From Candidatus Omnitrophota bacterium (GTDB lineage: Bacteria > Omnitrophota > Gorgyraeia > Gygaellales > Profunditerraquicolaceae), in the NCBI GenBank assembly GCA_963805065.1, contig CAWDSS010000010.1, forward strand, positions 472,359 through 536,358: a DNA stretch of 64,000 nucleotides. The letters are read 5' to 3'. The number at the start of each line of letters is the position of its first letter. Position 1 is the first letter of the stretch. A program made the position numbers and the translations under genes. The notes beneath the pieces are model-generated. The model ran no database searches, was not told the DNA's origin, and saw only the letters and a program-made list of their open reading frames with translations. Below are positions 12,201-36,200 of this stretch, piece by piece.

Positions 12201-15200
12201 TTGCCTTGAGCACTTTTTTGATGGCACAACGTAATTGTTCTTCATTCTTATATGTTTTATAATAAAGAACCTTCCAAACAGCTTCTTCCATCTGCGCAAA
12301 GTTTTCCTGAGCCCTAGGAAACTTCAGGCCTAGGCGTGAATAAGTAAGCGCAAGAGCTGCGCGTATCTCCTTTATCGAGCAAGGTCTAGACAAAAGCCAC
12401 TCAGTCAATATCTTCTCTTCTGTCCTCCTGGCAATATACAATGCAGTGGCCTGCACATCACCTTTAAGTTCCGGATAGAGCTGCCATATAAAATTCGATA
12501 TGACGACAAAAGACTGGTAATAAAACTTATGCACACTCCTAAATTTATATTCTTTTAATTTAGCCAAATAATAATCAAGCCTGCCGGATAATTTTGTATA
12601 AATAAAATAGTAAGCCACGAAATCACCAACAGTATTCTCGTTCTGCAAAAATTTAGAGAATTTCATCCGATATTCAGTATAGAATAATACAAATGCGGCG
12701 AGAATATTGTCGTTTGAAAGATTTCGGCTTTTTCTTAAGAATCCTGCCAAAACAGACTCTTGGGTTTGCTCGGCAATAAAAAGCGCCGCAGCCTGCATAT
12801 CATTTTGCATCTGCGGATAAATCAAAAAAATCCTTTCCAAAATTCCAGGCAACACACCATATAGCAGAACATGCTTAGTCCTCTTGGATGATTTATTTTT
12901 TAGATTTCTTAAAGAGAAAATAAGGGATTTATTAATTTTCACAAAGCCTCTCAACGCAGTGGCATCTTTTAAGGCCTCTGCGCACTGTTTACGAAGAACA
13001 CTAAAGAACACCGCAAAGGCTATACGGATCTCTTGTTTTGCATACTTCTCATCCGAGCTAAAGAATTGTATCAGAACCGGCTCCTGTAATTTTTCTGCGA
13101 CCAAAAGTGCCAAAGCCTGAGAATCTCCTTTCTTCTCCGGGTGAAGTAAAGAAATCTTCCTAAAGATCTGAGGCAATATGCCATTAAAAAGCGTCTTTTT
13201 TGTTCTACCTGCTGGATTGTTTTTAAGATTCTCCAGTGAAGTTAAAAGTGAGTAATAATCATTAAAATTCTCCACTATCCGGCCGATATACTTATTCGTA
13301 TCGCAGGTCTTGTCCTTTAATTCCGGATAGGCCTCCCAAATCCTGGAATAAATTATATCTCTTAAAAGAGGCTTAAAAATTTTCACATTCATTTTTCCAA
13401 GATCATGGCTCACAAACTTAAGGCTTTTCCCAAGTGCCCTATACCTTTTGTAATCCTTAATAGTTCGCTCGATAAAATTAATATTTTTAAAAATATATTC
13501 GGGGAAAAGGCGCCTCTCACGAGAGAAAAACATTCTAAATAAATCCATAACCTTTTCCTCCTTCATTTCAGATTGTAAGTATTTCTTAAGCATTCTATTC
13601 TTTAATTCTTTAGCTAAGAAACGCGCCAAAGCCAATCGGCTATCTCCGATTTTCGCGGCTAAAAGCTCCTGCGCGCGGTACAGCGTCTTAAAGAGTACAT
13701 TAGGATGCCGTTCAGCAGGACGCGATTTAAAGTTATTAATGATCTTATCGATACGGGCCTTTTTCTGAGCTGCTTCATCGCTCCACCCCGGGATATAATC
13801 AGTAATAAGAATATCCTGTTTTTCTTTTTTATCTGTTGAGATGCTAGCGTTAGAAACACGCTGTTTATCATTAAGGTCGCGCAGATACCCTTCCTTATCT
13901 ATCAAGAATACCCAAGATTCATCGGTCCGCGTATTAACAAAAGCAAATCCTTTTGCAAAACCGTAAAATTTGATATAGCCATCAACAACCAAATCTTGAT
14001 AGTACTTATAGGCTTTATTTACGGATAGCTCCATCCTAATCTGGTTCCACGTCACATAAGCTCTGCCATCTTTTGAAAGTCGAACAATCTTACCTTGCCG
14101 CGCCTTATATGCCCGTTCTAAAAGATTTTCCAATTCCAGCATAAAACGGCTTCTGTTATACATTTCTCTCAACAATTCAGCTATCTCCTGAGGTGTTTTT
14201 ACAGGCTCATAGTTATATCCGAGCATACCTAAAGAACCATAGGTATAACCATAAGAAAGAACATTGGCGATATCTTCATCGAGTATGCCATGCTGTTGCA
14301 TGATTATAATTTCAGAAAGGATGTTTTTATAAAAATCTGCGATCGCAAATTCTGAATCTTTTTGATATTCAAGGCCGATCCCTAAAAGTTTATCGGCATC
14401 TGCTTTACGCCACAATTTATTTTCTTGATGGGCAAACCAGAAAAATTTGCTCTCCGCTGATTTCTTACCATTGGGGAATCTGAAAGCGTTTTTAATAATC
14501 TCTAGAGCAAAAGGATTAATTTCCCCTACTTCTTGCTTCAGCCTATTTAACGTATCCCTGACAAATTTCCGCCTGTTCTTTCGGACCTTTCTCTGTTCCA
14601 ATTCTTCTGCCCAATCCTTCACAGGACTACTCGTCTTGCGATCAAAGAGGGTCCCCAGTGGAACCGAACTGGGAGTTTCTGCATCAAGCGCCTGCCTGAT
14701 AAGCTCTTTATCGATAGGGCTGCCGGCGTCTTGCGGTCGCGCACTCTCAGTCGTATCTAACGGTAATGCATTGCAGTAATCCATCATCGCTCTCCGGATA
14801 ATTTCCTGAGTGATGGATGAACTGGCGCCGGCAAGCATGATCGATCTACTGGAAGACGCTATTTGGATGCTGGAAGGATTCCTGGATTCCGATATAACCT
14901 CTCCCACCATAAACCATGCATAGAGGTAAAGTGCCTTGATTTCTTCTAAGATCGGATAAGGTGGCCCCAAAGTTCTTTTTTTACCAAGCCTTTCTTTCTG
15001 AACCCATCCAGTTTCGTTATCCCAGAAACAATCCAAATAATAATCAGAAAATTTAATTTCAACCAACTTCGGATAAATAGAAGCAGGAAACTGTTCCTTG
15101 CGCTCTTTTGATATTTTTTCAAGACTAAAATAAGGAATGTAAGCCGTTGATGAGAAAAACTCAAGCTGGCGGGCAAATCGTTCCCAATCAACAGCTCTGG

Positions 15201-18200
15201 TAATCGCATTCTGCTGCCTCTTTGAAAATGCAGCAAATGCATTTTCATAACGACCTCTTAACAATGAAGCCAGCCAATTAATATGTTCCTCATTCTCCCA
15301 ATCAAAAGCACCCTGCTCCCAAAGACGTCTTGTAAGAATACGAGCCCAGGAAAATAGATAATCTCCTAAAAGGCTGACTAAAATGAAATTTTTCATGGCT
15401 TGGATAGGAACGTCTCCGATAAGGAATGTTGCCTTTGGAAAACGAGGTAAATGTCTTGATCTATTGTCACTATTCTCTATAATCTCATCCAATGTAAACA
15501 TATGTTCAAAATCAAAAGGCCCAGTATAGCTCACGTTTGGATATCCAGCCACCCCTAAGAAATCCCTTAACCGACCAACACCAATTTCAGCGCCATCGCT
15601 GCAAAACAAATCAGTCATCCACAAAAATCTCCGACCTGCGTGGAAAAGACTAATAATAGAAGAATGAATAATGCCATAGCGTGATAATTGAAACAAATCA
15701 TGCAAATTTAAATCCGAGGCCTTAATAAAATCCTCATCACTTATTCCCTTGTCCGTTAAATAATGAAGATAGGCAGGATTCGCCTCGTAAGCCATCGCTG
15801 TATAATAACCATCCGTATTATCTAACCTATATGAAAAACCTGAATTCTCTATCTGTTGTTCTAATGTTTCTTTGATCTGCAAAGGAATAGAATCAATCGC
15901 AATGCGCACCATCGCCTTATTGTCAAACCGGTGTAGATTAGGATATTCTGCTTTGAGTCCAAGCGTTTCTTTATTAATTGCTAAATAATCAAAAATTCTA
16001 CACTCACGAAGCATTTCTCCTGGAGCATCTTCCTTTCTTAGAAGTCTAATGACGAGAATTTTATCTTTTTTGTTTGTATTAAAAAGAAGCTTCCTTCCAA
16101 CGACTCCTTGCAATACTAATTCATTAACGCTTGCAAGGTCATTCCAGCGATAAACAGATACATCAGTTAAGTTTATGCTTTCAAAAACAGGCCATACTTT
16201 AGGCGGCTCTTCTAATTGAATCACAGGAAAAGCATCTGCAATTCCCCTAGTAAACCCAGACCAATCACAAGCAGAAAATCCCGGATCCTTGAATAAAATC
16301 TTTGTAGGAATTAATTCCCTTAGGGCCCCTTGAATAACCTCTTCGTCCAAGAGAGAATCTGACATAAGGCTAATTCCGACTAATTCTCCAAGCTCTCTAA
16401 GAATTCTTACGTATTGCGCCCTACCATAGATTTTTCCCGCAGTAAACTCTTGCCTTGAGACTTGAAGCGCTGAACGTAAATCAGAAATTATTTGAATTTT
16501 TTCTTCTCTGGTCTTGTTCATGAAAGATTCTTTTGTATATTCCATCGGGCTGCTCGCAAGCGCTCTCTTTTCAGAACCAATAAAAATACTATTATGGTTT
16601 TGTCCAACGTCTATCGTCCATTGACCATCGGCTAATCTCATTGGGCTGCCGGCGAAAGCTTCGGAAGGAAATATATTTTTAGCAGGCAGTAACCCTTCTG
16701 ACTGCAAGATGTCGATGAGCTCACTGATATGTGCTAATTTCTGGTTCAATCCCTTAAAGCTTGTCAAAAGCCTCGTTTCAGGCCTATGTAAAAATTCGTA
16801 AAGAGCCATGTCTTGCGGACTATTGCTTTTTAATGTTCCTTGCGATACCTCATGGACAAACTGATCAACTTTTTTGCTTGAACCTCTCTGGTAGAACTCT
16901 TTTTTGATAGATAAAATCAGGGAATTCAGATGTTCATAAAGATTTGACAAATCTACAAGGTTTTGCACCCTATCAAGAAGAGACTCTTTGCCGTCTTCCT
17001 GGTTATTCTCATACCCCCGTTTATCTTTAATACTCAATGGAACCAATAAGGGGGCAACTATTTTAATAAATCTGAGCGCCTTAAGATGATAGTAAATCAT
17101 GTTGGCCAAAATATTCTCTTCCGTGCCTACATCCATTGTGAGAAATTTGGGATTAAACTTATCTTCAAATTGCTGGCTTAAGACATAGACTTGTTTAAAT
17201 GATGCTACCGGCGCCTCCGGCTTCAACTCATACAATCCGATAAGAAGCGCGTTATAAATACCCCAGAGTTCTTCCCATTCAGGGTCAGACTCAACATAGC
17301 ACCCAACAAGATTCTCAAGATACCCCATAAACCTTTCATACGACGGGTCCTTTAAAGTCTGCATAGGGCTGTTGGAGTTAGGTTCATCTGACTTCTTTAG
17401 AGTTAAATTTACTGTTGAGCCATGATATCCTTTATATTGTATTATTCCGCCTCTTTCCACGCTCTCTTTTGGTGTTGCAACCCAGTTTAGGTAACGGTTG
17501 AATTGGTTAATTTTCTCACGAGCTTCAGTAAAATTATTTCCTTCAATTTCTTTATATATGTTATTCAGCGCCCGCAATAAAATACTTTTGGTAACGTGAG
17601 CAGGCATTTTTGATTTGAGACGGTTGATGTTCGTTATCAGTATGAGAAAATCTTCTTGGAGCAATGCTGGTTCCTTTTCGATTATATCCGCCCTTCTGCG
17701 TAACCCATCTAACCTTTTTCGCAACTCATCCAAATAAATACTCAACGAGACAAAAGCAACTTCTATGTGCTTCCCCGCAATAATTGCGATGGCTTGCACT
17801 AATTCTGAAAAATCCTCTGCTCTATTGCCGGCAATAAAGCCGATTAATTTTCTATAATTCCTTGCCACCGGTGAGCTGGTGGTTCGAGTTTGCTTGCCAC
17901 GAGCAAACGCTTTCTTCTGGGGGTAAATAAAATTATCTGTGTCTAAGTGCTTATAAAGTTTTTCCAAAACAGTATCCTCCCCTCGTAACAAAACAGGGCT
18001 GGAACCTTTGCGTTTGCGGAGCTGCTTTTCAGATTTGATCTCATTCAGCCTGTTTAGGATTATTTCAAAATAATGTTGCGAATTATCAAAAATGTATTTT
18101 TGTGAGGGCTTCTCGGCAGGCTTTCTTTCTTGGGCTTTTTCTAAATTGGACTTATAATGCTCTTCTAAAAGAGAAAGCAATTTTGTACTATCTATCTCAC

Positions 18201-21200
18201 CTGATATAACAGGGCTACCTGACTTATTTCCTTTTTTAGTAACTAGCCAAGAAGAAAGTACATCATTAAGTTGTGTTAAATCTTCAAGCTTACTCTGTAA
18301 TACTTCGCTCCACAAGTCCAACTCGTCATTCAAGTGCATGATGTCAGTCATATAGGCTTGTTCCCAGTTCTCAATGAACTTGTCTTTACCAGCCAATGAA
18401 AAATATTGGCTCATTACATCAGATAAATCTTCCTGTAGTTTCTTTACAAGAGCAAAAGTATTTTGAGCGTCTTCTAATAATATATCGACTTGGTTCAGTC
18501 TTTCTTTTCTCTGTTCCGATAAAGAACGGGCGTATTTACCTGATTTTAAAACATCTAACTTGTCTTGTACTTCTTTCATCCGCAGTACTACATTTATCAA
18601 AAGGTCAGTAATATTAACGTGTTTAACCGGGCTACTGCCGGATAAATTATCCAATAAATTATAATCGGTTGGTGGCTGGAATAGTTCAGTAGGAAGATCT
18701 TTTTTATAATATTGACTATATATATCCTCGGCAAATTTTTTAATTCTTACCTTACGCTGCTCTTGTGGTCTTTGCTGTTGTTCTTCATCAAACCTATAGT
18801 AATTATCAGGAATAAATTCTCTATGCTTAGGATTCCTTTCGCCAGGATAGTTAGATAAATCTGTCGCATACTTGATGCAAGTGTCTAAAGATGCTGCTCC
18901 TGCATAACCTTTATTCTTTGCCTCTGTGCCTGAAGGCCTAATCTCTAGCCAACCCCAATCAAACATAAGATATGTTTCATCTCCTACAAATAAAACGTCG
19001 GTAAGACCAGAGAAATCTAAGCTATTAAATGCTTCGGAGAGAATATCTTTAGCTTGATCTAAATCAATTAAACCTTGTCGCTTAGCTAAAGCAATACCCA
19101 AGAAATAAGTATCATTGGTCGAACGGATGATTAGCCCTTGTTTCTTGTCTACCTCTAACTTGGCCTTATCCGGCTCATTGGGATTATAATAAACTACATC
19201 GGATCTAAAATCACACCTACTTTTGATTTTATTGTGCGTAAATATATCTTCCAAATATTCTGATAACAATTTGTCTTCTTTTTCTATAAAGCCGGCTAAG
19301 GCGGCGGTTAATACTATTGCCTCTCCTGCGGATTTTTCTCTCATGGCAATGGCTTTCCTCTTTAATATCAGGCTCTCGATAAGTTCCACAGGGCCAAATA
19401 TTTCTCCTCCGGATTCTTCGCCAGCAAATAGCAATCTTGGATTTACGCCTAAATTAATCTTGTTGCCATATACATCTTCTATAATTACAACTTCGCCATG
19501 ATGTTCACGCATGTTCTTCTCTATTTTTCTCATAATTGCGGCGATTTCCTTAAAACCAACCGGCACATTGACAACAGGAACGCCGTTTGCTTCTGCCCAC
19601 TCATCCCATGAACGGCTTGATGCCGTAGTTTTAATAATAAACCAATTGTACTTCTGCCAATAACCTGCTTCCTGTAACGATTTTGCCTGATAATCAATAG
19701 TCATTAAGAAAGACTGGTTGGGGATATAAACAACCAGCATCTTTTCATCATCTATCGGCATGTAAACAAGCCCAAGTTTCTTAATACGCTCCATATTGCT
19801 TAACGATTCAATCTGAGCTGTAACAAGTCTGTCTCCATCGGGATCAGTAATTAAAACAACTGTGCCTACCGGCACTCTTCTTAGGGTCTTTTGGTACCCC
19901 ATTGTTTCAATTACGGGAAGGGTAATTCGAGTTGTATCTATAACTAAAATCTTATTACCTAAGCTTATATAAGGAATATTTTCTTGCTTTAGACGAAGAA
20001 TAACTTTCTTATTTTCTATTTTTGCAACAACCTTACCAATGGGGGGCTGATTAATAAATATGATACTGCCAGCAGGTACATTCTTAAATAATTCAATAAA
20101 CATTTCTTCCTTGGACTGAATCAGTTCCATGATCTTTGAAGCAACTTTTTCTTTATTGATAGCCACCACTGTGGCATCACAAGAAAAATCATAAAATCTC
20201 AAAGAAGGCCTATTGTCGGATTCACCAATTTTTAATTCATAACCTTTGCCGATGCCATGGAAGAAAGAATCTTGTTTAGTATGCAGGAAACGGAATGACT
20301 TTCTTATGCCTAGATTACGGAAAATGCCGTTCATAATCTGGTACGTACAACCACCCACGCAGTCAATAATGATTGGTTTTCTTGCCCCCCTGATTAAACT
20401 AAGGTTAATTTTTGTAGCGACGCCCTTCTTAAGGTAAGGTACATAGAGTTTTATGCCGCCGTCAAGTTGTTCTAAGATATCTGTTCGAATAAATTTGCTA
20501 TCAACAGAGGCGATGCGGATTTCATAAAAACCTTTTTCATCGATAATCGCAAAGATCTTCTCTATCTCATCCAAGAATTCCTTGGATTCATTGGGTAGAT
20601 ATTGGCTTCCTTCATTATTGATATCTTTTGTAGCTGTGGTGGTAGCGATCGCGTGGCTGGCTGTAACATATTCTGCTCCCAAGAGATCCAGCATAAAAGC
20701 ATCAAAACAGGCCAACCAGATAGAGGTCTTTTTCCCTTTTATAGGCACTAAAGTTGTAATACCGTAGGCGGCTTGTAACCTTGCGATGAGCTCTACGAAT
20801 AAATCCGAATTGTAGCGCACTTCAGAAGAAACAAGCTTATAGAGTGTTCTCTCTTGATAATTCTTTTGGGCTGCTAAAATTTTTCCCAAGGTAGCTAAAA
20901 GTATTGAGAAAAGATTAATCGGATAAGAGATTCCTTTTGGGGTAACTCCCGGATAGTAAGGGTAGAGTACATTTTGATCCCCTCTGGTACCCGCAGTAGA
21001 AATTTCCGTTTCCGGTTTAAATTTCTCATAAAACCATCTTCTTAACCCTAATCCGTGAGGATTGTTCATCTCATCATAATCTTCAAGATGTTGTTTATTT
21101 AAGGTGATACTGAATTCTCCTTTTTCCGAGAGGTTTATAATATTTGCTAAAACTTTATCTTTAACCCAGTCTGGCGTAGATTTATCTATACTATCAAGCA

Positions 21201-24200
21201 ACATCTCTTCTAATCTACTCGTGGGGCTACTAGAGGCCGCTAATAATATTGCGCTATTATTTTGGCCAAGTTTAGTTATCGCACTGCTGCCTGAACGCAG
21301 GAACACAGACTCAGGGAAAAAGTCTCCGGCGCGCAGAACAGCGACAATCGCGCTGATTTCACGGAACTTATCTATATCAGTATTATCGGGGCGCCGCGTG
21401 CCGCCCATAACATTCATCAGTATGTCTCTTGCAGTTTTCTCAACTTTACTAATCAATTCATGAAGTCTTTCAAGTAAAGGCAAAGCATATTCGTCTAAAT
21501 TATCTTTCTTAATGACAGGGACATCAGAAAATAATGGGAATAAATCTTTAAGCTTGAATAAAAGTTCTAGCTGCAGTTTAATGGTAATCAAACCATCTAT
21601 CATCTTTTTATCTTGTTGCATCAGTACGATAACATCGCCTACTGATTCCAATAAATAGTTGAGCTGATTGCGTACTGCATTAAACTTATGAACATCGTCC
21701 GTAGGCTTAAGCAGATAAACTGCCTGTAATATTGCCAAATAACTTTCCCGGATCTCTATGGTATCCAAACCCGCCTTATCCAAATCTATTACTAAACTTT
21801 CAAACAAGTTGTTCATTTTCTGGTAAGATAGGTCATTACGAATATCCATCGGGCTGCTGCCGGACAAAGAAACAATAGTTTTTAGAGAAAGGGCTGCTGC
21901 GAGATTCGAATCCCAACCTGCCACGGAAGATGGATTCTCCCGAGCAGCCATTCTCATGTCCTGTCCAGCCAAGAACAGAAATAATCCTTTCAATAAAGCA
22001 AGCGCCGCTGCGGAAAGGGACTCCACCAGCCACGGAAGGAAATCCACTTTTATATTCCGCAGCGACGCTAATTCTAAACCGCTTTCTATCTTAATGGGCG
22101 AACTGATGCTGCATAAGATAAGTCTGGAATTTGCTACGGATGCTGAAACTGAGTTCGGGCCCAAGATCAACCCAAGAACCCGCAGAACTCCTTCCTTGAA
22201 CTTTACCATTATGCTGAATAAAGAATTTGTAGCTGGAACCCCAGTCATGGTATTTCGCAAGTACAAAAATCCCCGCTTTGCTAAGCTTAATCCTATCGAG
22301 TTCAAGCATCTGCCAATTAAACATGGGACACCTCCTGTTTGGTCTTGCTGCCTTAAAGGCGAAGAAACTTTGTTTTCTGACGGTGGCTGGACGGCAATCT
22401 TGGTAAAGCTATCCTTATCCACCTCAGCTTGCGTAAATTGTAACTTACTTATTTTATAGCCGTTATCTTTGAGAATTCCTATGGCTTGGTTTAGACAAGC
22501 CTTGGCTTCCTCAATAGACATGTCAACACTCTCTGCTAACCGATAAAATGTTACCCATCTTCTAATCTCTCCGGTATCATCTTCAACAGCCTTGGACTTT
22601 AAAATGATGTAGTCTATGAACTCTACAATTGCAAGGTTATTGCGGAACTCTTTAATCTCATCCAAAATACCTTCAGCTATTCCTTTAACGTTATTTAAAT
22701 AATCATTTAATCTTTTTATCACGCTTTTACGATTTTCGTAGACATATAGCAGGAGCGCCTTGAATTCATCAGAGTGTTTTAATGCTCTGATACCTCCTAA
22801 TGCCCGGTTTTCGAGTAGATACTCAAAGGACCTTCTACCATCTTGTTGGTGTTCTTTGCTAAGCTTAGAGTTGTATTTTTTGGCTACTGCCGATATGCCT
22901 AAAGCTTTACGTAAGTATCTTACGCGTGGAAGGGGCTTATCTCTTTTACCTATCCGGATAATCCCCTTTTCATTGCGGCCCATATAGCGTTGCGAAGTAA
23001 AAATTCTCATTACAATATCTGCCAAAGACTGACGGAGTTCCTTCATGGTCGGATTATTTTCCAGAGGAGAACCGGTGACTGAGAGCTCTTTTTCTAAATC
23101 CCAAATCCGTTCCTTAAGATTTATATTGCGGTCACGATAAGACAATATTCTAAGGATTAGCGTGTCTTGGACAGAATTAAGCGCCTTTTTTCCTTTGCTG
23201 CGCTTAAAATTAGCAGCCAACATTTTTCTAATTTCTTTGTTCCTTGCAATTTGATATTCGTAATACTTTATCCAAGCTCTTATATATTCAGCGGTAATGG
23301 GTTCGGGGGTCTTTTCAGCAATGTATTCTAGTAATGCTTTATTTACGCGCCGTTCATTTTGTTCTTTAATACTTTTAAGATACTCTGCAATCTTGGCCGC
23401 TTCAGCCGGTACAGTATTGGATTGTCCTGTTGTTTCTTCATTTACAGGAGAAGATGATATTTCTTCATCTAAGCTTACCACTTCAAAACTGTTTTCATAA
23501 ACGCGGACAAGGTTATGTTGCCGGTCAAACAATGCTCCTACCTGCCTGGCGCAACGAATTTCTTGTTCTGTGTAAGGGCACACATCGCATCTTATATAGC
23601 CACGGTTAATCAATGCCGCCTTTAAGGCATGTCTTTCAGCCTGTATTTCTTTATATATAGAAGAATAGTGAGGTTCTTCCGGGTCTACTCCGGGAAATTG
23701 TATTGATACATCTAAATCAGATCCTTGCTTTTCCCTGCCATCAGCATAGCTGCCAAGGACTAAAACCGGGATTGGAAAGAATATGCCTTTTAGTTCTAAT
23801 TCCTCAATCGCATCTTGAGTATTTCTTACAATATTCTTTATACGCTTCGAAGTTACTATTATCTCCGTTTTCTTTTGAGCCGGGGAGCTGGTCTGATTTT
23901 TTCGATAGGGCCTGCGCTTATGCTCTATCCTGCCATTTCTTACCTGATGCTCGATACTCTTTACTGTCCAAGGATTGCCCCTCCTGGTTTTATATCCTAG
24001 TTCATTAAGCTTATCTACAATCTGCTGAGACGTCTTTCCTTTCTTACCTTTACCTTTTTGGATTGGTTTACGTATTGATGATATTAGTGCAAGAGTTTCA
24101 TCTAATTTAACAAAATCTGCCCTATTCCATTCTAGTTTACTTAATTCAAAGCGCACAGTTCCTTCAGTTATCTTTTTTGACTCTTTTAATTCACCTCTTG

Positions 24201-27200
24201 ATTCTTCTGCAATCAAACCTGTAAGTACGCCTGCCAGCTCTGCATTAGTCATCTCTATAAAGTTCTCTAAGAGAAAACGCAATCTCCGGCCATTCCAAAT
24301 CTTAATTCCTATAAGAAAGCCTTCCGCTTCCAAAATTTCAAAAGCCATTACATACTGTTCAGGCGTATATTCTTTCCCAATAACGCGCCTGAGACATTCA
24401 ACTGTAAACTCATGCGCTCTTAATTGCCATTTGCCTCTGGCTCTTGATACTTCATGCAAGGCTTTACCTTGGACCAGAATACTTCCCCCAAAATTAGAAT
24501 CAAGCACGCCCCCAAACTCCTTGCTGTTATTTAACCTTTTAGCTGGTGAGCTGGAGCCCCGGATAATTGGCTCAGAAACATTAGATCCACCTGCAATGCT
24601 ATCTTTCTTACTACGAGTCTTATGTTTTAACATAGCCTTCCAGATAATTCCTTTGTATGGATTCATCAGGATTATACTAATGGGAGGTACGAATAACAAA
24701 ACCACAGTCAATATAATTATGTATGAGGGATTTCCGCCCGTCAGGAATGCATAATCTCTGGCCTGAATGTCATAAGCCAGATACATGTGCAGAAAATCCA
24801 TCATATAATAATGCCCTAAGGAAAGACCAATGATAAAAGCAGAGAGATATGTTCTGGTTTTTCGCAACTTGTAACCTATTAAGAACAAAAGGAAACTGGA
24901 GGCAAGGGCCTTGAGGCCACTAAAACTCACCATAAACTCTGCCGAGAATCCACAAACAACTTCTAATAAAGGTATCTCGATACGTGCTATGGAATTTCTT
25001 AAAATGGCCAGGGAAGCAGGAAAGAAAGTTATAATACTCATCCATGCAAAATCTGCAACCGCTACACTCCACACGCCAATGATTTCCCACATAGACTTCT
25101 TTCTCATGCGCGTTAGCGACGCATAATCATAGATGTCATTCTTTTGATTATCTCTACTCAAAACACTGGAAAGCAGATGTAATACTAGAACAGAAGAGTA
25201 AACTGTAAACAGTAAGGTGACGCTACCAATGAACGCCCAAGAACTGTAAGCTGCTGCGCCCATAAGGAGAAGAGGCGAAATAAAGAGTGCCGTCAAGATA
25301 ACCCCCTGCAAACGGCGAGTAATCATATCTTCACGTAATCTATTGTTTTTAACTCCGGGCGTAAACTGCTTATCTGAAAGTGTCTCCCCAGATGTAGATT
25401 TCATATCTCTTAATGCAATATCTAGTTTGGTTTGTATGTATGTTTTGGATTTTATTAGGATAATACCCAAGGGAGGTATAACTAATAAAGTTAAGCTCAA
25501 CAGTAGACAGTAAAATAAATCGTTGCTTGTTAAAATTTGGTAGTCTCCCCATCCAAAATAACTGTAAATAACAGTTGAAGACATTTGCATAAAATTCATA
25601 ATATAATAATGCCCCAGAGAAAAAGCCATCAAGAAAACAGAAAGACGTGACTTGGTTTTTTGCAACTTGTAACCTAGCAAGAATAAAAGTAGGCTGAAAG
25701 CCATTGTTCCCAGAACCCCAGGAGCTATCCAGAATAATTTCATAACGGTATTATGGTCAAAAATGCTAAAAATCCTATAGGGGTGTTCAAAATCACTAGG
25801 ACCAGCTCCCCCTCCTGCATCCTCAATTAGGTATTTATAAAGAGCCGTTATTATATCCTGTCCTTTGATTCGCGCTTCTTTATATGCATCCAGTTTCAAA
25901 AGGAAAAGGTCTATGGGAGGATGATACGCAAGACTCGAGCCCAACCAATGTCCTAATTCATGGAAGAAAACCCCAATCCCTATACCCAATTGGTCAATTC
26001 CTACTGCTAACATCCCCAAGGATGCCCAGATATATTTCTTTTGCGATTTCGCTATTCCATGCTTTCCGGCCGTGCTCTCTAAGGTAATATTTTCTTGATA
26101 ATTATTTTCAAATTTGAAAAATGCACGTAACGTCAAATAAGAAAATGGAATCATCATAAATAACCCAATACCTTCAGCATAATGCCACATACTGTCAAAT
26201 GACCATCCGCAATAAGTATCTACAGCGGACACTATAATCTGAGTTACTATGAATGCCATAACAGCATAAGTCCACTGACGCCAAGGCGGAATAACTTCAT
26301 TTAGGCTTAGGTATGGGGATTTCTGGAAGATGCTCTTTAATTTTGCATATTTGGCCGGAGAACTGGAGGACTGCGCCTCTTGACTTTTGTTTAGATTAGC
26401 CGCTGCAGCAGAAACTACCGCCACCAGCCACGGAAGGTCAATAGTTCCCTCTTCCTGCAGCGGCTTAACCAAAAATAACCCGCCAGAGAGTAGAATAATA
26501 TACTCCCCACCAGCCACGGAAGGTAAAGTATATATCTCGATAACCTCTCCAGCGGGTAATCTGATACGTATAAATAATTCTAAAGGCGAACTAGAATTAT
26601 GTATTTTTAACGTAAGCCTCTTGCCTTCCAAAGTGTTGAACGTCACATCATAAATCTGGACAGCAAGGTCTGTGAGAATACGCTTATATAGGTATTCTAA
26701 TGAGAGGCGGCTACGGTATCCCTCAAGGTATCCTCTCCATACGTTAGAATTTGAAGTAAATAAATCTAAGTACCCCTGAACCGTCTTTTTGGGATAATGC
26801 AGGCTATACCATTCAGCAATCTTTGTCATTGCCCCTTCGCCAGTTGGCACAAGGAACTGACCCTTGGCAAGTTTTTTCAAACTTTCATCATTGTCCGCAG
26901 CATCTTTTAAAACGTTGCCCCAATCAGGATTACCCGAAGCATCGAATCCTCCAGCAAAGTTAATTTCGACTGTCATTTTAGAAATTACTAATTCTATTGG
27001 CGTTATTTCAGATAAGAAATTAATTATATTGGGCCTTATGGCCGGCGGGACACCCCTACGCCACTGATAATTCGCTACACCGCTAAGCAAATGAAGTAGC
27101 GTTTTTTCTTCAGACGAAATTATTCCTTTATCAGAAAGCTGGGAGATAAATTGTAATTTGTCCCAGGCGCTTAGGTTTTCAAATTTGAGGTTTTCAATAA

Positions 27201-30200
27201 GGAGGGAATCAATGAGGCTGGCAATCTGCGCAAATTCTTGTAAAGAAGGTACATTTTTTATTTCTTCCAGAGTCGGGGGAGCACGGCAGTCGGTTGTTAA
27301 ACGTTCAATATAGAAAAGAATAATTGCTCTGTCCGCAGTAAGCTTACGCCTTTTACCCATCACCAGATCAAAACCATGCTGCCCAAGATAAATAGCGTAA
27401 TCCTTTAAAAGGCTTTGCGATGGATTATCCAAGCTTAGCCTACCAGCTGCTGGCTTATTTTCTTCTCTAAGAGGCTCTTTATTCCTCTTATTTACAAAAC
27501 CTCTAATAAAATTATTATTATTAGCTATTTGTTTATTCATAATCTTAAGATAATCCTCTAAAATTTCTTTAATAGCATTAAAGCCTTTATTAATAAGACT
27601 ATTTCCAACTTCCAGAGCAATTTTTACCGTATCAAATGGTGATGTTAGGTCTTCCTTACGGTAAAAACTATGCTTCCCTGTTAATCCTAATTGATTTTCT
27701 AAGGCAGCTATTGAATTTAAATCAACTGGAACTTGATTAGAGATTATTTTATCTATATTTCCCAAGGCCGCTTCCACTTTGTGAATTCGCATGTAGGTAC
27801 TGTCTATAATGTGAGCGGCCTGTCTAATTTTCGGCACTAATTTCACATCTTCTTCGCCCAAATTAAAGGACTTAAGTATATCTAAATATGCCTCTGGAGT
27901 TTCAATCGGGTTTGGCATAGTTTCATTTATAGGGCTGCTGGTTCCGAAGCCAGCCTCTTTTGATTCAGGATTATTGCTGCCGTTAGCAGGCACCTCGCAA
28001 GAAAATACGCCATCCACAACCTGCTCTAAGAAACCAATCGCCTGGAGAGTTATCAAGGCCTTTTTCTTTATATTGGGCTCTGACGTGGCATATTTTGCAA
28101 AAGTGGCTATCTGTTTTTCAAGCCGTTTTAACCCTGTGGCAGCCACCAATTCCTTAACATGCCTCAAAACATCTCCCTCGCGATAGCTACTGGAATGATG
28201 GAAGAATATACTCCAAATCAAAAACCTTCCTTCCTCAAGAGCGCGTATGGATTTAACATTGTTCAAGAAAGAGACGATGCTTGTCTTATTACTGCTATTT
28301 CCCCATATGGGTTTTTGTACATGCACCCAAGCCTTATATTTCCATTCAAACTCACCAATCACGCGATCACCGATATAACTTTCTTTAGCAAAAACAGTTT
28401 TAAGATTTTCTTTGCTGTCTGATCTCAAAGCCTCGATAAAATCGGAGAGTTCCTTTCTGGCGATAATGGCTCTTTCCCACAGTTTGATATGGGCTCGCGA
28501 CTGGCTCCTCTCAATATCCACCTTAGGTGTGGTGGCAATAGCTTGATACATAGCTTCCCTGCGTGATTCCTCTGTCTGATAAATCCTGCCTAACCACAAG
28601 AAAGATTCATAAAGACTCTTGACCTCGAGGTTCCGTCCTCCCATATCCGGATCTCTAGGGTCAGTATCAGAAAACTCAACCAAATGTCCATTGGTAATTT
28701 CAAGCTTATCAGCCATAAGACCTTCAACAATTTTATCGTGGAGTTTGCTTGTGGTGACCCTAGATTTAAACACGTCCAGGAGTTTCTTCGTTCGCTTTTT
28801 AACAATGTTAAACAATTCGGGCATGGCTCCGCCAAATACTCCGATTAAGACCGCAGCATTCACCAGAGCCTTCATAATGCTTGTCGCCGAGGCCTCAAGT
28901 AATTCAAAGGCCAACATAATAGCCGCATTGACTGCTTTAAAAATAATCTGTGCATCTTTAATATTGTAGTTTTCTATAAAAGCAACCCTGTTTTCTAGCC
29001 CTAATTTTTTCGCGAGCCGCTTTAACTCATCAAATAAATCCTTGGCCTCATCATCGAATAATCTGCCGCCGATAATCAGACGAGTGCCGGACTTTTTGAG
29101 CTCATCCAATGCCGAGGCGTCATTTTCAAGCCATTTAAACATTTCCTTATATTTCAACGGCCCCTTATACTTAACCTGGCGCCTGACATTTGCGGCAATA
29201 GGATGTTTCATTAAAATATCCACAAGTGTTGAGAACGTATCAAATGCATTTTGCCATTGAGATTCATCTTTGATGCCTCTTCTTATAAGTTTTTTGAAAT
29301 AATCGCGCACAGAATTTATATCCATGAGGCCATACGGCGTGTCCTTAAATATCTCTCCGAGCCAAGTGGCGCCTCCCATATCCTGCGTCTGATAAGTATT
29401 CAACCATATCAAGAACTCAAGCATATAGAGAGCCTTAATCATCTCGAGACGTTTTTTAAATTCTTCCTTCAAATCACTGTTCCGCTTTTTGGCAAAAGCA
29501 GTAAAAAGTTTCTTGTCTTCCACTTGCTCCTCAAGGCCTAACTTCTTTTTAAACTGCTCAATCAATTGTCGAAACTCTATCCCTTGCCATTTATCAAGAA
29601 GAACGCCGTTGGTGTTACGAATACTATCCGTTCTATAACTCCATACCTTATGCAACCAAGCTGGTAATACCTTTTCTCTTAAAACAGGCGTATGCTCAAA
29701 TAACCCCACGCCAGTTGTAAAATCAACGCTTAGGAGAGCGTATTCAGCAATATCTATCTCTCTTCCTTTTTCTCCTAAACGCACGATGTAAGGCCTGTAA
29801 GACTCATCAAAACCCAGCAATTCAAAAGAGTATTCCCTTGGCCTATACATCCCGTGTTTCCAGACCGTATGATTGATGTGCTGACGAATGGGCTGACGTA
29901 GTAATATGGCATCGCAAAAATGTTTTTTAGGAAGACTTACGTAAACTTCATTTTCCAGGAATATGATCTTCTCTTTTGCTGCACCTCTTTTTTGTAGTTC
30001 TTTGACTAATAGTTGCTCGGCTTCGTTATAAACTGCCATCTGGACATCGCGCCAATCATTGTCCGGATATAACTCATTAAAAATATAGATTTTCTCGTTC
30101 TTCTCATTGTAATAATAGGCATCCTGATAATAAATAGGGAACTTTCCATAGAGGCTTTGGGTCCTGTAGATGTCCACCTTTATCGGCTTTCCGATAATCT

Positions 30201-33200
30201 GGCGAGCGGCTTCCACATTGGCTTTTTGCTTAAACTCTTCTCCTGTAAGCGTAATATCCGGTATTTGAATGTCTGTCTTTTCTAAGGCTGCTCTGATAAT
30301 GTCTCCAAGAAGATTTCCATGAAGAATATCCTTTATCATTGGCTCTGGTAATTCTTTTGGCAGCTCTCTTACAATCCCTTTGATAAGATTATAAATAGAA
30401 TTAATGGAAGTTATGTCAACGCCGTTTTTGGCATCGCCATCCGTTAAATCAGGCATAAGAACTCCCAAGCCGCCCGCCATAACAACCTGTGCCACAAGAC
30501 GAGCAAGATGTTCCAAGGTCTCTTTCTTCATTAATCCTTCCTGATAAAAATTAGCGTATTTTTTAAGAATGACTTTTTCTGTCACCTCTCCGAGACGTTC
30601 AATCAAACCCCTGTCTAAGGCATTTTCGAATTGTAAACTAACGACTGTGTATTTCCCAACGACAGGTGCATTCTTCTTCACCCAGCTACGTTTATCCTGC
30701 GCTGGGTTAACATTCCTCTCAAGCGGCGAAGATGATAACCTGGCCAGCTGCTTACTGATGATGTCTTCATATTTGGCTATCTTACCGCTGGTAATCCAAT
30801 CTGGATCAAACTTTTGAAGCTGGCGTAATAATTTTTCGTAAGCTGGCTTGTCATGGACATAGAGATTAAAAAGTTCTTTGGTTGCAACAAAAATAGCTTT
30901 GGCGCTCTTCATGCGCTCTCTCACTGAAACTTTATCATTACCAATTTCAAATCCAGGCACAAGCTTAAATGCCCCTCCCATATTATAAAAATCAACCAGC
31001 CCGCCCCTGGCAGTAACAATCATGGGTACTAAAAGTTCTGCCATCTCTTGGTCAAGCAAACCACCCGGTTCATCAATAGAAGGCATATCGCCACCTTCAC
31101 TACCAGCGCCAGCCTGCCCGGCCAAAGTAGTATTAAACTCATTTACAAAAACAAACTTTCCCTTATATTTCCCCTCAGCTACAATTGCATTAAGCTTTTT
31201 AACAATATCCTTCCCAATCACATCCCTCTCACCCGCGGTACCTTGAATATATAGCTGTAATTGTGCACCGGTTGCTTTATCTTTAATGGATAAAAGGGCG
31301 TCAATCAGCTTTGGCCCGCCTTTGTAAATCGGGGCAAACAAAATATTCAAGCCTTTTTGCTTTACGATTCGTCCGATAATTAAGTTTATAAAATTATCCG
31401 GGTTGAACGCATCAAGCCCGACTTTTTTCTGAAATGCGCGCTTATTGTGTTCTTTCCAGCCAAGAACATCTTCTTCAATCTCTGCGATAAATCCTTCCTG
31501 TTTCAACGCTTGAAGATTTTCAGGTCTGTATTTCGCAGCCCTTAAGCCGTTATAGACAAACTCTAATTTATCCCTCATAGACTGCAAAACACCATCTAAT
31601 CCATAACCTCTTGCAACTGTGAGAGCCTCATTCATATGGCCTTCGCTTACAAACACAATTTTATCTGCATAAATAAATGCGCCCTTCATTAAGTTGAGGC
31701 CTTCATTACCTCCCTTTGTTTGTAATTCTGCTCTTAAATTAGTCAACTTAAAAATCTCAATGGCAAGATTGGTTTCAGAAACATGGTAATAATTTGCTGT
31801 CGGGTCTGCGTAATGGGCATGGTGCTTCAAAACACCTCTTTCAAATAAATATTGCACCAGTTTATCATTCAAAGACTCGATCATTGTGCCGGGGAATAAT
31901 CCTTGATATTCAAGATTGTGAGTTGTGAACAATCTCATAGGCCTCCTGCCTAAAGGCCATTTTTTATTAGCATATAATTCTTCTAAGAATACTGGCCCAA
32001 ATCCTGTCTGCCAGTCGTTAAAATGATAGGCGTCAAACTGAACATTTAATATTTCGGGAATAATCAGAGAAGCCAAGGGCAAGTTAATCCCCTCCAGATA
32101 TCCTCCCAAAGAATCTGGATCAGGTTTAGCATAAAGATCAAAGAAAATATTTCCCGTGCTGTCATAAAGCAATCCTATGGGTACACCTTCCTGCTCTGCA
32201 TAGATAACTTTTAGTGGGTAGGTACCAAAACCCACAGGAACCTCAATATCCATAAGCTGCTTAGCACCAAAAGCCTCCATAAAATTATCAATGGTGCCAT
32301 ACGTTACTAACACATCATTGAAGAATAGAGGTTTCGTTACAAAGGAAGCAATGCCTTCTTGAGATGAAACGATTGGAACATCACCCATATAAACCGCCTG
32401 TCCTCCACCCTGACCGGAAGCCTGTTTTAATTTATTCCCAGTTTTATCAAATAAGGGCATTTCCATAGCAACAATATTTACAGCAAATTTTCCATTCTTT
32501 CTGGCTAATGCGATTCTGTCGACAATCTTCTTGTGTAAGGCAGCATTTATCTCTACCGGGTTAATTGGGCTGCTTGTACCAAGTTTTTTAGAAAGGGAAT
32601 ATTCTGAAATTATATCTATGTTCTTATCAGAACCTTTGAAATAATAAAGCGCGGCAGTTTTTGCTTTAAATCCTCCCCAAACTCTGCTATGTAATATATC
32701 CAACACCTGCTTTTCATTTTCTGTTAATTCTTCTTCCAAGTAGCCCATAGTAGCATGCGGTTTATATGTAGCATAAGCCAGTACAATTTCCGGAGCTATC
32801 TGCTCATGTAATGCAATTATTTCAACGAGGCGAGTGAAATCAGCATCGTTCATGTGCATCGGAACATATAAAGCTAAGTTAGGTTTAGGCATTACTCCTA
32901 AACCCCTGGCTTCAAAATTGACGATAGATAATCTGGCGGGCAATATCTCATCAGAGAGGATTTTGGCTTTCTTAATAAAATCCTGTTTAATCGGATTAAC
33001 GGATGGCTTAAAACCAACTATGGTAACGTGATTGGTTTTCGGATTATTCCAAGAAATTTTGTCTAATATAGCTTGTGTTAACTCCTGTTTCAAAACAGAT
33101 TGTGTTTCTTCCATCATTCTAGTCTCAATAGGAAATGCGGAATAAATACTGTATCGCTGAGCTACAATAGAGATTGTCGGGCTGCTGACTTCAGCCTTTT

Positions 33201-36200
33201 GAGCTAAAATATTATAGTTATCTAAAGTCGGCCTTCCTGGATTCACATGTTTGACCATAGGCTCGGCATACTTAATGACAAAACCCGATCTTTCCAGATA
33301 GAGCTTAATTGTATCAAGAGTAAAATGGAATAAATGTTCCATTAAATTCAAAGATGGGCCATCCTTGGGCGTCATGGGCACACGTAAAAATACAAATCTT
33401 TCTGGCTTCAAAATACTATGTATCTTCTTTAAGAAAACCAGAGGTTCTTTTAAATGCTCTATTACAGAAAAAGCAGTTATAAGGTCGAAATCTTTACTTA
33501 TGAAATTTGTCTCCAGAAAATCATTATTTATAACCTTGATGCCGCTCTGTCTTATTCTTTGGCAAGTTTTTTCGCTTAATTCAACAACAGTAATATTCCA
33601 ATCTCTTTCTTTTGCTTCTTCATATGTCAGGCTTACTCCCGGCCCGATTTCTAAATATTCTAATTTGGGTCCAAACAATATCTCGGGATCGGCCTGTCTT
33701 AAGGCAGCCTCAACAGTATCAAATTCCTCCTGAGCCCTTCTGCGTATTTCTTCTTCCGGCAACAATTTTGCATATCCAAATTGTAAACAATTGAGGCTCT
33801 CAAAATATCTATCACTATAAATATACTCAAAATATGTTTCCCCGGGTTGAGGGTTCATAAATATCAATCCCTCGGCATCGATATCAAAGAAAATTTGCCT
33901 TCCGTTGAGCACAATAGAGGTAACATGCGGATAATCACCCAGGTAAATGAATTCATCAAACACGCTTTCTGGTAAATCAGAAAGATTTATGTGGTCTGCC
34001 ACAGGAACTGCTGCATCAACCTCTTTAAACTGATAGATATTTGCTTTTCTATTTATGCCCTCCTGAACAGCCATCGGGCTGCTGACTGAACCCTCTACCT
34101 CTTCTTCATCATTCATGACATAGCGGTTAATAAACTCATCGGTCGTCATGTGCTCCAGAGGCTTAGTTGTTATGGTATTCCAAAACGCTTCTATTGCCTT
34201 TAATTTTCCCCAGCCGAATTGATGCAAAATCCCCATGGCTTTTTTAACATAATCATTTCTTTCTGTTTCCAGCCTCATCCATTTCCAAAACGCATCCATC
34301 GCTTCATAACAGGCCAAATCAAAGCTGTATTGCTCTATACATTTTTTTTCATCAAGAGGATAAAATTTAAGCACATCCTTTTGAGTAATCAGATACTCAA
34401 AAGGCCTTTTGTCTTTTGTTGTTTCCCAAAAATCATTTACTGACGGCATCAAGAAAATAATACCGCTCCTTGGATGCAGATGAGCTGCTACTTTGCATAT
34501 TTTTGAATCGAAAGGAGCAGCAAAAGAACATGTTAAATTATCTTCTCCTGTAATTTGATATCCCTTCCTAATCCACCATAAACCCGGCTCTTTCTTTAAG
34601 AAAGCATATTCACAATAACCATCTTTTAGAGCTAATTTGACAGAATCAGCAACGATCTTTCTGTCTTTCACGAAGACCCCTTCATTGGCTCCAAGACTAC
34701 TAAGTAATTCGCGAGCATTTCTTGCTCGGCTCGAATCTCTTACAAAAGAATTGCTCGATACATAAACGTTATTGAAATCCCCGGTAGCTTTTCCTATTGC
34801 TACAATGCCAACTATGAAAGCAAGCAATAAAGTAGAGAGCCATAATTGAGGCAAGTTCATAACATTAAAAATCAAAGAATAAAATGAAATCGAAATAACG
34901 ACTAAACTAACTGCAGCTATAACTCCATCTTGTGAAATAAGCTTAGCCAGTTTTTCATGGCGGGCTGAAAAATCCTCTACCGTTGTCTTCCATGACTCAA
35001 CTACTCTATTACGCGTCTCTTTTAAGCCTGAAACCATCGGGCTGCTACCCTGTCTATTAATCCTGTCTAGAATTTTGTTAATTCTATTATTAACTGAATC
35101 AATGATAACTGACTTAAGCAGGACTGCTTTGCGGTATTGCTCTAACAAGGATTGTTCATACGCCTTTGCGGATAGACTTGAATCAACCTCGGCCCTTGCA
35201 TTCTCAAACGAAATTCCTCCTTCTCTTACCTTCTTTGTAATAAATAACGGCCTTGCGCCTTCAGATATTCTGGATGGCTCATAAGGAGCCTTGGTTATCA
35301 ATTTTAGAATACCTTCATCCGTTCCATTAAACGCACCTAAATCAATCTTTTTAACATCAAATCCTGCCATGGTTAACATCGTGGCAAAGGTTATGTAATT
35401 AAAATGGATTAAATGATAAGAATGAATTTCGCCAAACTCTTTACCCTGAAGTACACCCAGTAAGCTCAACATATCTGGAGATTGTGCGATTAGGATTCCA
35501 TTATCCTTAAGGAGGGAATTTGCTTTCTTAAGCATGGCCAGTGGCTCTGTGGTATGCTCTAATACATCAATCAAAGTAATAATATCAAATGTACCGGCTA
35601 TATCAAATATAGTGCCTTGTTTAACCGGTATGCCTACTTCTGCAGCCCTTACTACAGCTTCTTCTGATATCTCTATTCCTTCAGCGCGCCAACCTAACTC
35701 CTGAGCTGCTTTAACCAGCCATCCACAGGCAGCTCTTACATCAAGCAGTCTTATTGCTTCATAATCCTTGATGCCAAATAATCTTTTTACAGGTTCCAAT
35801 ATACCTTCTTTAAGGTTCTGAGTGCTTTCTCTCTTGCCAAAATAGTCGTTATATCCTCCCTTCCCTTCGCCTTGCTGGAAATAATCAAACCCATACATCT
35901 TTTTAAGTTCGCTTTCAGTCGGGAATGGTTGATTAAATACTAATCTACATCTCTGGCATTTAAGAATATCAAATTTACGATTGATGCCCCTGTATAATCT
36001 ATTACCAAGGTAAACTTCTAATTCTCCAGATTTGCATAAAGGACATCGTATAGGGCTACCGGATAACCCATCCCTAGCTCTCTCCAATAACTCAAATACT
36101 CCCAGCTCTTCTAAATCTTTAATAGCATCCTTTTTATTTAGTGCAGATTTTAGAAGTTTTCCCATTCCCTTATCTACGGCTATGCCAACAGCTGCTCTTA

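Follow-up and report, generated by a model that had tools for sequence, protein, structure and literature searches.

Glycogen-synthase-like, phosphorylase-like and phosphohexomutase modules delimited by a recurrent SSP junction within a giant open reading frame of an Omnitrophota bacterium

Giant open reading frames (ORFs) have been documented across the phylum Omnitrophota by Seymour et al. (PMC10066038). In 2023, West-Roberts et al. described the Omnitrophota “Archaeovorins”, in which the GT5 glycogen-synthase-like domain ranks second in frequency among the domain types and is accompanied by GT1, phosphoglucomutase/phosphomannomutase (PGM/PMM), methyltransferase, HEAT and TPR domains as well as by frequent SecA-DEAD-like and C39/S8 peptidase domains; these authors weighed both storage-glucan and extracellular roles, and they proposed cleavage by C39/S8 peptidases while stating that the cleavage points are unknown (10.1101/2023.11.21.568195). 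A preprint of 2026 subsequently defined “multi-enzyme metabolic clusters” together with a Pfam co-occurrence module comprising PF08323, PF00534, PGM/PMM domains and ROK (10.64898/2026.06.07.730766). The current study concerns a 64,000-nucleotide stretch of a Candidatus Omnitrophota contig (CAWDSS010000010.1, positions 472,359 to 536,358), referred to here as the window, in which a single minus-strand ORF encodes three divergent modules related to alpha-glucan enzymes: a GT5 glycogen/starch-synthase-like module, a GT35 alpha-glucan-phosphorylase-like module and a long-form alpha-D-phosphohexomutase, each delimited by a short motif centered upon the tripeptide Ser-Ser-Pro (SSP). The reading that we favor, and which we regard as reasonably probable, is that of an enzyme array tethered to the membrane, where GT5 and GT35 would act side by side upon an alpha-glucan that the mutase would link to hexose-6-phosphate.

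The window ORF resembles the described Omnitrophota giant proteins in its length of >20 thousand amino acids (kaa), its tiling by many enzyme Pfam domains with transmembrane-like clusters interspersed, and a repertoire that includes GT5 starch-synthase, PGM/PMM, methyltransferase, GNAT, HAD, HD, HEAT and TPR domains. With a length well past 10 kaa, many Pfam domains, transmembrane clusters and relatives of the Omnitrophota type, it fits the description of an Archaeovorin-like multi-enzyme giant protein. However, a term search of both giant-gene preprints (10.1101/2023.11.21.568195; 10.64898/2026.06.07.730766) found mention of neither a GT35-like phosphorylase module nor a junction motif, whereas the window has both. 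Furthermore, the SecA-DEAD-like and C39/S8 peptidase domains that are common in the described proteins were not detected among the 21,333 residues of the window, the ends of the ORF lying outside it. A sequence-only reading of this DNA had remarked that enzymes of this kind are normally encoded by separate glg and pgm genes. This is accurate for the classical bacterial GlgA, GlgP and Pgm, which have the superfamilies and catalytic signatures of the window modules but are encoded one per gene, with lengths of about 480, 800 and 550 aa. In Omnitrophota giant proteins, the combination of GT5 with PGM/PMM had already been reported, which reduces the novelty implied for the trio (10.1101/2023.11.21.568195; 10.64898/2026.06.07.730766).

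Continuity and composition of the giant frame

None of the 21,333 codons in the ORF frame is a stop, whereas the other five frames contain 872–2,072 stops each in a six-frame count, and the codon-position purine/G signal selects the ORF frame in 21 of 21 consecutive 3-kb blocks. Because the frame is free of stops and the coding signal persists throughout, the window must be an internal portion of one giant gene, whose two ends fall beyond it; codon 1 of our numbering corresponds to window positions 63999–63997 on the minus strand. Many unrelated Pfam domains are found in the same frame. From residue ~6495 onward, the protein is a chain of ~34 protein-sized, SSP-delimited modules, the three glucan modules being just 3 of these (Table 1). 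According to Pfam scans of the whole ORF, the mosaic ahead of GT5 includes GNAT, NAGPA and HEAT domains followed by two S-adenosylmethionine (SAM) methyltransferases, after which come GT5 and GT35; between these and the mutase lies a weakly matched Pol-beta nucleotidyltransferase/recombinase-like segment, and beyond the mutase are GAF, HD-GYP and TPR domains, DUF4135, HAD and another methyltransferase. The claim of the sequence-only reading that three enzymes share one ORF holds, as all nine of the motifs it had quoted occur once each in this single minus-strand frame and at the places it gave. As regards the layout of the modules, only GT5 and GT35 are directly adjacent, and the mutase lies 2,236 residues away from GT35 with unrelated modules in between.

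The nearest relatives of this protein are the giant ORFs of Omnitrophota and Elusimicrobiota. Among the 20-kb Omnitrophota loci that were retrieved using the GT5 alignment, most have a frame that stays open from end to end, from which it appears that GT5 embedded within a giant ORF is the rule.

Table 1. Features of the giant ORF within the window, in protein order; residues (aa) are counted from the first ORF codon in the window.
Feature	Window position	Strand	Residues (aa)	Remarks
Segment of one giant ORF	1..63999	minus		21,333 codons without a stop, open at both window ends
SSP junction before GT5	32566..32574	minus	10476-10478	
GT5 glycogen/starch-synthase-like module	30733..32574	minus	10476-11089	bounded by GTSSPI and LSSSPL
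SSP junction GT5/GT35	30724..30732	minus	11090-11092	
Divergent GT35 alpha-glucan-phosphorylase-like module	27940..30732	minus	11090-12020	directly C-terminal to GT5
SSP junction after GT35	27931..27939	minus	12021-12023	
Intervening modules	21232..27939	minus	12021-14256	eight SSP-delimited segments, 2,236 residues
Hydrophobic, transmembrane-like block	24664..25737	minus	~12755-13112	about 9 segments, between GT35 and mutase; Kyte-Doolittle hydropathy and inspection
SSP junction at mutase start	21223..21231	minus	14257-14259	aligned to residue 3 of stand-alone P0043
Long-form alpha-D-phosphohexomutase module	18637..21231	minus	14257-15121	bounded by ASSSPT and SGSSPV
SSP junction after mutase	18628..18636	minus	15122-15124	

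Three divergent alpha-glucan modules

The GT5 module scores 71.7 bits against PF08323 (gathering score 22.7) and 128.1 bits against TIGR02095 (cut-off 328.45), the latter match spanning profile positions 75–411 of 477, and it reaches at most 110 bits against the GlgA equivalog models (NF0018xx, cut-offs 459–870). When a profile built from six GT5 sequences was compared with the PDB, all nine matches were GT5 starch/glycogen synthases, and the alignment to the best of these (6gne, 3.6e-27) covers both GT-B halves (profile positions 588–647 and 706–1036). HFNDWQ, THNLEYQG, RIVKQKG and PSIDEPGGL are all contained within the module on columns that are invariant among its relatives, the last three being present as single copies in the ORF frame at aa 10693, 10877 and 10973 (window 31923, 31371 and 31083, respectively). 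We take these motifs to correspond to Asp137 (HDW), His161 (HNxxYQG), Arg300/Lys305 (RxxxQKG) and Glu377 (EPxGL) of E. coli GlgA. The closest GT5 relatives, at 41–52% identity, are encoded by Omnitrophota, Elusimicrobiota and “Planctomycetales”-labelled metagenome-assembled genomes (MAGs), a genome contig scan having given none above 52%, and they include the Omnitrophica protein P0001 at 50%. P0001 is one of five smaller GT5 proteins (P0001–P0005) of about 2,000–2,560 aa from Omnitrophota and Elusimicrobiota (e.g. the MGUR01000053 protein, Elusimicrobia RIFCSPLOWO2_01_FULL_59_12), whose GT5 regions are 41–50% identical to that of the window and likewise contain an atypical GGGQGVYM motif at the N-terminal end in addition to HFNDWQ, HNLEYQG, RIVKQKG and SIDEPGG. 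Unlike the window ORF, they are complete genes of ~2 kaa, in which GT5 is joined to other partners (a HIT-like C-terminal domain, a methyltransferase) and is not followed by GT35. The HIT-like domain (GGASQDHIHAH) is conserved at the C-terminus of the ~2,000-aa Elusimicrobia-type proteins P0002, P0003 and P0005 (locus L013 and relatives), where a role in providing or consuming a nucleotide sugar is conceivable; nothing equivalent is present in the window.

For the GT35 module, the evidence from its own sequence taken singly is thin. Against PF00343, the module scores 40.9 bits (cut-off 27) with short stretches alone aligning, and it obtains 34.5 bits from TIGR02094 (cut-off 191.7) and 33.8 bits from TIGR02093 (cut-off 552.9). 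Profiles of 3 and 14 family members matched 48 sequences in the PDB, all of which are glycogen, maltodextrin or alpha-glucan phosphorylases of GT35 (best 5e-16). GGLGVL (aa 11176, window 30474) and EASATSIMK (aa 11702–11710, window 28896) occur once each in the ORF frame, and the latter is aligned to EASGTSNMK, the pyridoxal phosphate (PLP)-lysine signature of 2c4m and 4bqe, its Lys being invariant in 15 closer relatives. Also invariant across 14–15 GT35-like family members are GGLG (module residues 87–90), N287-H288, N375-G376 and R517-R518..Y522-K523, and in HMMER alignments the NHTV and RR..YK segments line up with the corresponding segments of GT35. The invariant columns GGLG, N-H, TNG, RR.V.YK and EAS.T...K, which are collinear, make up the GT35 active-site set; in rabbit muscle phosphorylase numbering, these presumably represent GGLG (135–137), His377 (NHT), Asn484 (TNG) and Arg569/Tyr573/Lys574.

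The same GT35-like family occurs both alone and in other fusions. The window module is 41% identical over 96% coverage to a stand-alone 940-aa protein (P0008), whose genomic surroundings gave no functional clue, and an exhaustive HMMER scan returned 124 representative GT35-like relatives, mostly within proteins of 2–8 kaa. Among 15 GT35-like relatives, GH77 is a fusion partner in three and GDE_C in two, P0009 additionally has a ROK kinase, and one fusion is named 4-alpha-glucanotransferase by NCBI. The family can be linked to alpha-glucan metabolism because it is fused to GH77 4-alpha-glucanotransferase, the GDE_C debranching enzyme and ROK. P0130 (Elusimicrobiota, annotated 4-alpha-glucanotransferase) and P0009 therefore resemble the window in carrying this divergent family in fused form, but the partners in such fusions are catabolic (GH77, GDE_C, ROK) rather than a GT5 synthase.

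The mutase module scores 34.7 bits against PF02880 (cut-off 20.7), with PF02879 and PF02878 being sub-threshold and in the correct order, and 35 bits against the best NCBIfam mutase model (GlmM, cut-off 439). It is 40% identical end to end with stand-alone proteins of 728–763 aa that carry PF02878/PF02879/PF02880 (E down to 2.7e-219). Its four signature loops, for phosphoserine (TASH, aa 14446, window 20664), metal (DPDGDR, aa 14719, window 19845), sugar (GEESGG, aa 14860, window 19422) and phosphate (RPSGTE, aa 15021, window 18939), occur once each, in order, and on invariant columns of a 36-sequence alignment. An AlphaFold2 model of the module (predicted local distance difference test (pLDDT) 83.5, predicted template modelling score 0.85) was matched by Foldseek to 2fuv, 3olp, 2z0f, 2f7l, 1wqa and PGM1 in the PDB with probability 1.0 and E down to 1e-17, the target template modelling scores being 0.70–0.78 to PGM, PMM/PGM and GlmM structures; as modelled, the module has the four-domain PGM fold. 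A single-sequence phmmer search of the PDB with the module gave no match, and the family profile gave 12 weak matches to PGM1 (E about 6e-3). By these comparisons, the mutase is a member of an uncharacterised subfamily of ~750 aa that solved structures nearly fail to match at the sequence level. Its GEESGG sugar loop resembles the PGM type; sources label its relatives “phosphomannomutase”. The module is 868 residues long compared to about 760 in its homologues, due to an insert of roughly 100 aa. A partial internal duplication of ~80 aa is found at window ~19700–20150, in which the metal loop of copy 1 is degenerate (NQPPIGKV) and that of copy 2 is the intact DPDGDR; AlphaFold2 confidence is low over the insert (model residues 361–432).

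All three Pfam scores lie above the respective gathering scores, in agreement with the family assignments of the sequence-only reading. Its further equation of the modules with GlgA, GlgP and Pgm was right as to the superfamilies, but all three fall far below the NCBIfam cut-offs for the orthodox enzymes. That reading would have been contradicted by assignment to unrelated families or by dead active sites; neither was found, as the signatures are kept except for the N-terminal Lys of GT5. Judging from these retained catalytic residues, the three modules are probably active.

The SSP junction motif and the remainder of the frame

The tripeptide SSP occurs 35 times in the ORF compared with 2.7 expected, a 13-fold excess that makes it the most enriched tripeptide, and SSP[ILVM] occurs 28 times compared with 0.7 expected, the junction consensus being [TSGAV]SSP[VIMLTA]. 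All 35 sites lie within aa 6495–21248 (window 258–44517), they separate annotated domains with none located inside any Pfam-matched stretch, and each annotated SSP-delimited segment amounts to about one enzyme unit. The motif is present at each of the five junctions that delimit the glucan modules, and the outer limits that the sequence-only reading had proposed for the trio (18628 and 32565) abut two of them (codons 18628–18636 and 32566–32574). The agreement with natural protein ends is close for the mutase, as the N-terminus of the stand-alone mutase P0043 falls within 3 residues of one SSP site and the alignment ends 4 residues before the next. In the stretch between GT35 and the mutase, SSP sites occur at aa 12470, 12546, 13150, 13371, 13516, 13879, 13966, 14048 and 14257. 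No glucan-related family was detected among these intervening modules at E<=1, the only match being a weak Recombinase/Pol-beta nucleotidyltransferase-like one.

Since the Ser residues of the motif are encoded by codons from both the AGY and TCN families, selection acts upon the peptide rather than upon DNA or RNA. A nucleotide-level junction signal (internal starts or RNA processing) was considered and rejected, given this mixed codon usage and the lack of a Shine-Dalgarno (SD)-like pattern upstream; likewise, the codon following the junction is ATG, GTG or TTG in only about 14 of 35 cases, which does not fit internal start sites. The motif is also found among relatives. Loci L029 and L032 have 6 SSP compared to 0.8 expected, located at the GT5 and GT35 edges, and locus L002 with its protein P0001 has 6 compared to 0.33 expected. 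SSSP[VI] is present at the GT5 module edge of both P0001 and P0004, SSSPV following the GT5 module in P0001 too; the GT35 match in L032 begins at SSSPL, and SSP is similarly found at the GT35 start in P0144 and P0160. SSP enrichment was not seen in the related giant ORFs L007, L009 and L010, and when 92 related long proteins are pooled, the enrichment amounts to 2.4-fold. As the motif is kept in some relatives and missing from other giant ORFs, it is lineage-restricted, but recurrent. We regard SSP as a candidate processing or linker site.

The remainder of the frame has several features of its own. One SSP-delimited module (aa 18108–19466, window 5602–9678) combines GAF and HD-GYP (PF13487, 2.6e-36) with TPR repeats, apparently as a cyclic-di-GMP-type signalling unit inside the same giant ORF, and is followed by a DUF4135 module (aa 19467–20176) and a HAD hydrolase module (aa 20177–20590). 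By comparison, aa 1–6494 (window 44518–63999) contain no SSP motif and no significant Pfam match, with none at all over aa 1–4800, and carry several transmembrane-like clusters; aa ~3111–5030 are 30–35% identical to an Elusimicrobia chromosome ORF (L018, OY969767.1), which also has a GT5 module. An in-frame tandem repeat of 264 bp (88 aa) occupies window 61277–64000 in 10.3 copies of 100% identity and runs off the window end, the GC content rising to 0.46–0.51 in this region. Either the repeat expanded very recently or the assembly collapsed or expanded it artefactually. Two more in-frame arrays of 261 bp lie at 46309–46992 (2.6 copies, 100%) and 47621–48441 (3.1 copies, 75%).

A tethered array, a processed chain or an outward-facing protein

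Based upon these features, the giant ORF would encode a membrane-associated multi-enzyme metabolic cluster protein of the Archaeovorin type, whose modules are joined head-to-tail through SSP junctions. Tethered to the membrane within this protein, GT5, GT35 and the mutase may constitute a small alpha-glucan turnover set: the mutase would interconvert hexose-6-phosphate and hexose-1-phosphate, GT5 would extend chains, presumably from a nucleotide-sugar donor, and GT35 would carry out phosphorolysis, with the GT5–GT35 pair working side by side on the same, presumably glucose-based, glucan. Hydropathy analysis identified transmembrane-like clusters at aa 2981, 3506–3696, 4604–4971, 5928–5954, 8329–8415, 9684–9718, 12758–13086 and 17535–17693. 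Because the penultimate of these, a block of roughly nine hydrophobic segments, is positioned between GT35 and the mutase, the mutase may face the other side of the membrane from GT5 and GT35, although the parity of the block cannot be called due to its ~9 segments and internal duplication. The duplicated halves read LLLFLLGYKLQKTKS...SLGHYYIMNF and FLLFLIGYKLRKTRT...SLGHYYMMDF, and the block sits in a single SSP-delimited module without a Pfam match.

Several observations weigh against such a turnover set. Firstly, the GT35 module did not yield a usable GT-B fold or PLP site when modelled with AlphaFold2 from a 3-sequence alignment (pLDDT 40), and the N-terminal KxGGL motif (Lys15) is missing from the GT5 module. 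The window reads ASGQGGGQAVYM at this point, with GQGGGQ replacing the lysine position; its relatives read G[K/G/F]GGGQGV[YF]M, the Lys not being conserved in the clade. Secondly, no GlgC-, GlgB-, GH13-, GH57-, GH77- or GDE-type module was detected in the window, either in the whole ORF at E<=0.01 or in the region of the three modules at E<=1. Thirdly, the scores far below the NCBIfam cut-offs for GlgA, phosphorylase and mutase suggest that the substrates may differ from those of classical glycogen metabolism, and the genomic surroundings of stand-alone long mutases are not glycogen-related and offered no functional clue. Fourthly, stand-alone or smaller relatives of both GT35 and GT5 have signal-peptide-like N-termini, as described below, in which case the enzymes would reside beyond the cytoplasm, where a supply of ADP-glucose is not to be expected.

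The trio also lacks conservation among relatives, as judged by comparing the window modules with 80 loci and about 120 GT35-bearing proteins by tblastn and blastp. A frame in which GT35 follows GT5 was found only in L029 and L032 (2 of 79 loci), none of the about 120 GT35-bearing proteins has a close homologue of the window GT5 or mutase, and no co-occurrence of the mutase with its trio partners was within reach in either set. On these comparisons, the trio represents a combination seen in this protein, as opposed to a conserved cassette. The sequence-only reading had envisaged a scaffolded “glucan factory”. The superfamilies, the single frame and the intact signatures are all in keeping with that idea, but just 3 of ~34 mostly unrelated modules are involved, GlgC/GlgB-type modules are lacking from the window and the trio is not conserved. 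Consequently, the three glucan modules are beads on a ~34-bead chain of a known giant-protein class and not a dedicated glucan factory, and the latter claim is neither new enough nor supported enough to matter alone.

The alternative that survives best, which we rate as possible, if rather unlikely, is that the ORF encodes a bacterial polyprotein, which is cut at the SSP junctions to free ~34 stoichiometric enzymes of ordinary size, including GT5, GT35 and the mutase; the sequence-only reading had raised this option as “co-translated delivery of a pathway”. The position and abundance of SSP would be explained in this manner, as it is the most over-represented tripeptide, is found between and never inside Pfam stretches and flanks all three glucan modules, while the modules it bounds closely match stand-alone homologues (the ends of P0043; P0008, which spans the GT35 module end to end). 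Moreover, the junction is kept at homologous boundaries in L029, L032, P0144 and P0160 even though the modules there are only 25–29% identical, selection acts upon the peptide rather than the nucleotides, Met is about 12-fold enriched after SSP, and cleavage by C39/S8 domains, albeit without cleavage points, is what West-Roberts et al. proposed. However, the 21,333 residues available contain no protease domain, S-S-P-hydrophobic fits no known protease specificity, many related giant ORFs (L007, L009, L010) are devoid of SSP enrichment, with the pooled value being only 2.4-fold, and a conserved motif that caps helices or serves as a linker would give the same picture. MARTX toxins and viral polyproteins offer an analogy, being single long products composed of independent enzyme units with short recurring junctions, but they have no sequence relationship to the window ORF; MARTX has a cysteine protease domain, with cleavage following Leu, and the viral products come with proteases of their own, whereas no protease was found in the window. 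A literature search found no paper that joins the term “polyprotein” with Omnitrophota.

It is unlikely that the modules form an extracytoplasmic, prey-directed array, facing outward to act upon polysaccharides at the surface of a host or prey, or upon released sugars, rather than upon the cell’s own glycogen, as in the reading of West-Roberts et al., although this possibility does have several points in its favor. Signal-peptide-like N-termini are present on P0008 (L001), P0009, P0003 and P0005 (e.g. MRKFLASFSILLYILSYIPLSYA), all of them free-standing or smaller proteins related to the GT35-like and GT5 modules. Such a start is odd for enzymes dependent upon PLP and nucleotide sugars and bears on the question of inside versus outside. 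Hydrophobic blocks lie on both flanks of the GT5–GT35 segment as well. Furthermore, West-Roberts et al. predict the sugar domains to be extracellular, a prediction that a missed transmembrane helix could reverse (10.1101/2023.11.21.568195), and a rise of about 3-fold in giant-ORF peptides of V. archaeovorus has been reported for cells adhering to larger ones (PMC10066038). Conversely, GT5 requires a nucleotide sugar and the mutase requires a bisphosphate cofactor and Mg2+, all of which are cytoplasmic, and the neighbouring SAM methyltransferases, GNAT, GAF/HD-GYP and HAD domains are typically cytoplasmic too. According to the 2026 preprint, the sugar module is compatible with anchoring at the cytoplasmic face in proteins having transmembrane segments only (10.64898/2026.06.07.730766).

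We consider it quite improbable that the modules are dead relics serving as a structural or carbohydrate-binding scaffold. The very low scores against curated equivalog models, the loss of the GT5 KxGGL lysine and the mutase insert with its degenerate, duplicated metal loop could all be interpreted in this way, but all remaining signatures of catalysis or ligand binding are intact and sit on invariant family columns, and the 40–50% identity to distant relatives argues for purifying selection on the modules. That an error of assembly or sequencing merged several ordinary genes into one frame is scarcely credible: the 100% tandem repeats elsewhere in the ORF do mark repeat-prone assembly regions, but there are zero stops over 64 kb with coding periodicity throughout, the junctions show neither intergenic gaps nor a start/SD pattern, and the same giant open frames occur in independent MAGs.

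Release from a polyprotein and an outward orientation both overlap with the membrane-tethered array that we favor; the modules of such an array may act in cis or after release and may face either side. The giant multi-enzyme genes of Omnitrophota rank with the largest genes described, and their products might function either as one tethered megaprotein or as pieces, with enzymes that face inward or outward. The window is a well-resolved example of this class, having modules that are delimited to the residue, active-site residues that are kept and stand-alone homologues that are known. In our view, the SSP motif is the item most worth following. The junctions supply concrete boundaries at which these proteins can be cut in silico prior to structure prediction, which West-Roberts et al. 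called impossible without cleavage points, and they are targets for a proteomic search of processed termini. If cleavage at SSP were true, it would supply the missing cleavage points of the Omnitrophota giant proteins and account for the correspondence between each SSP-bounded unit and a normal stand-alone protein.

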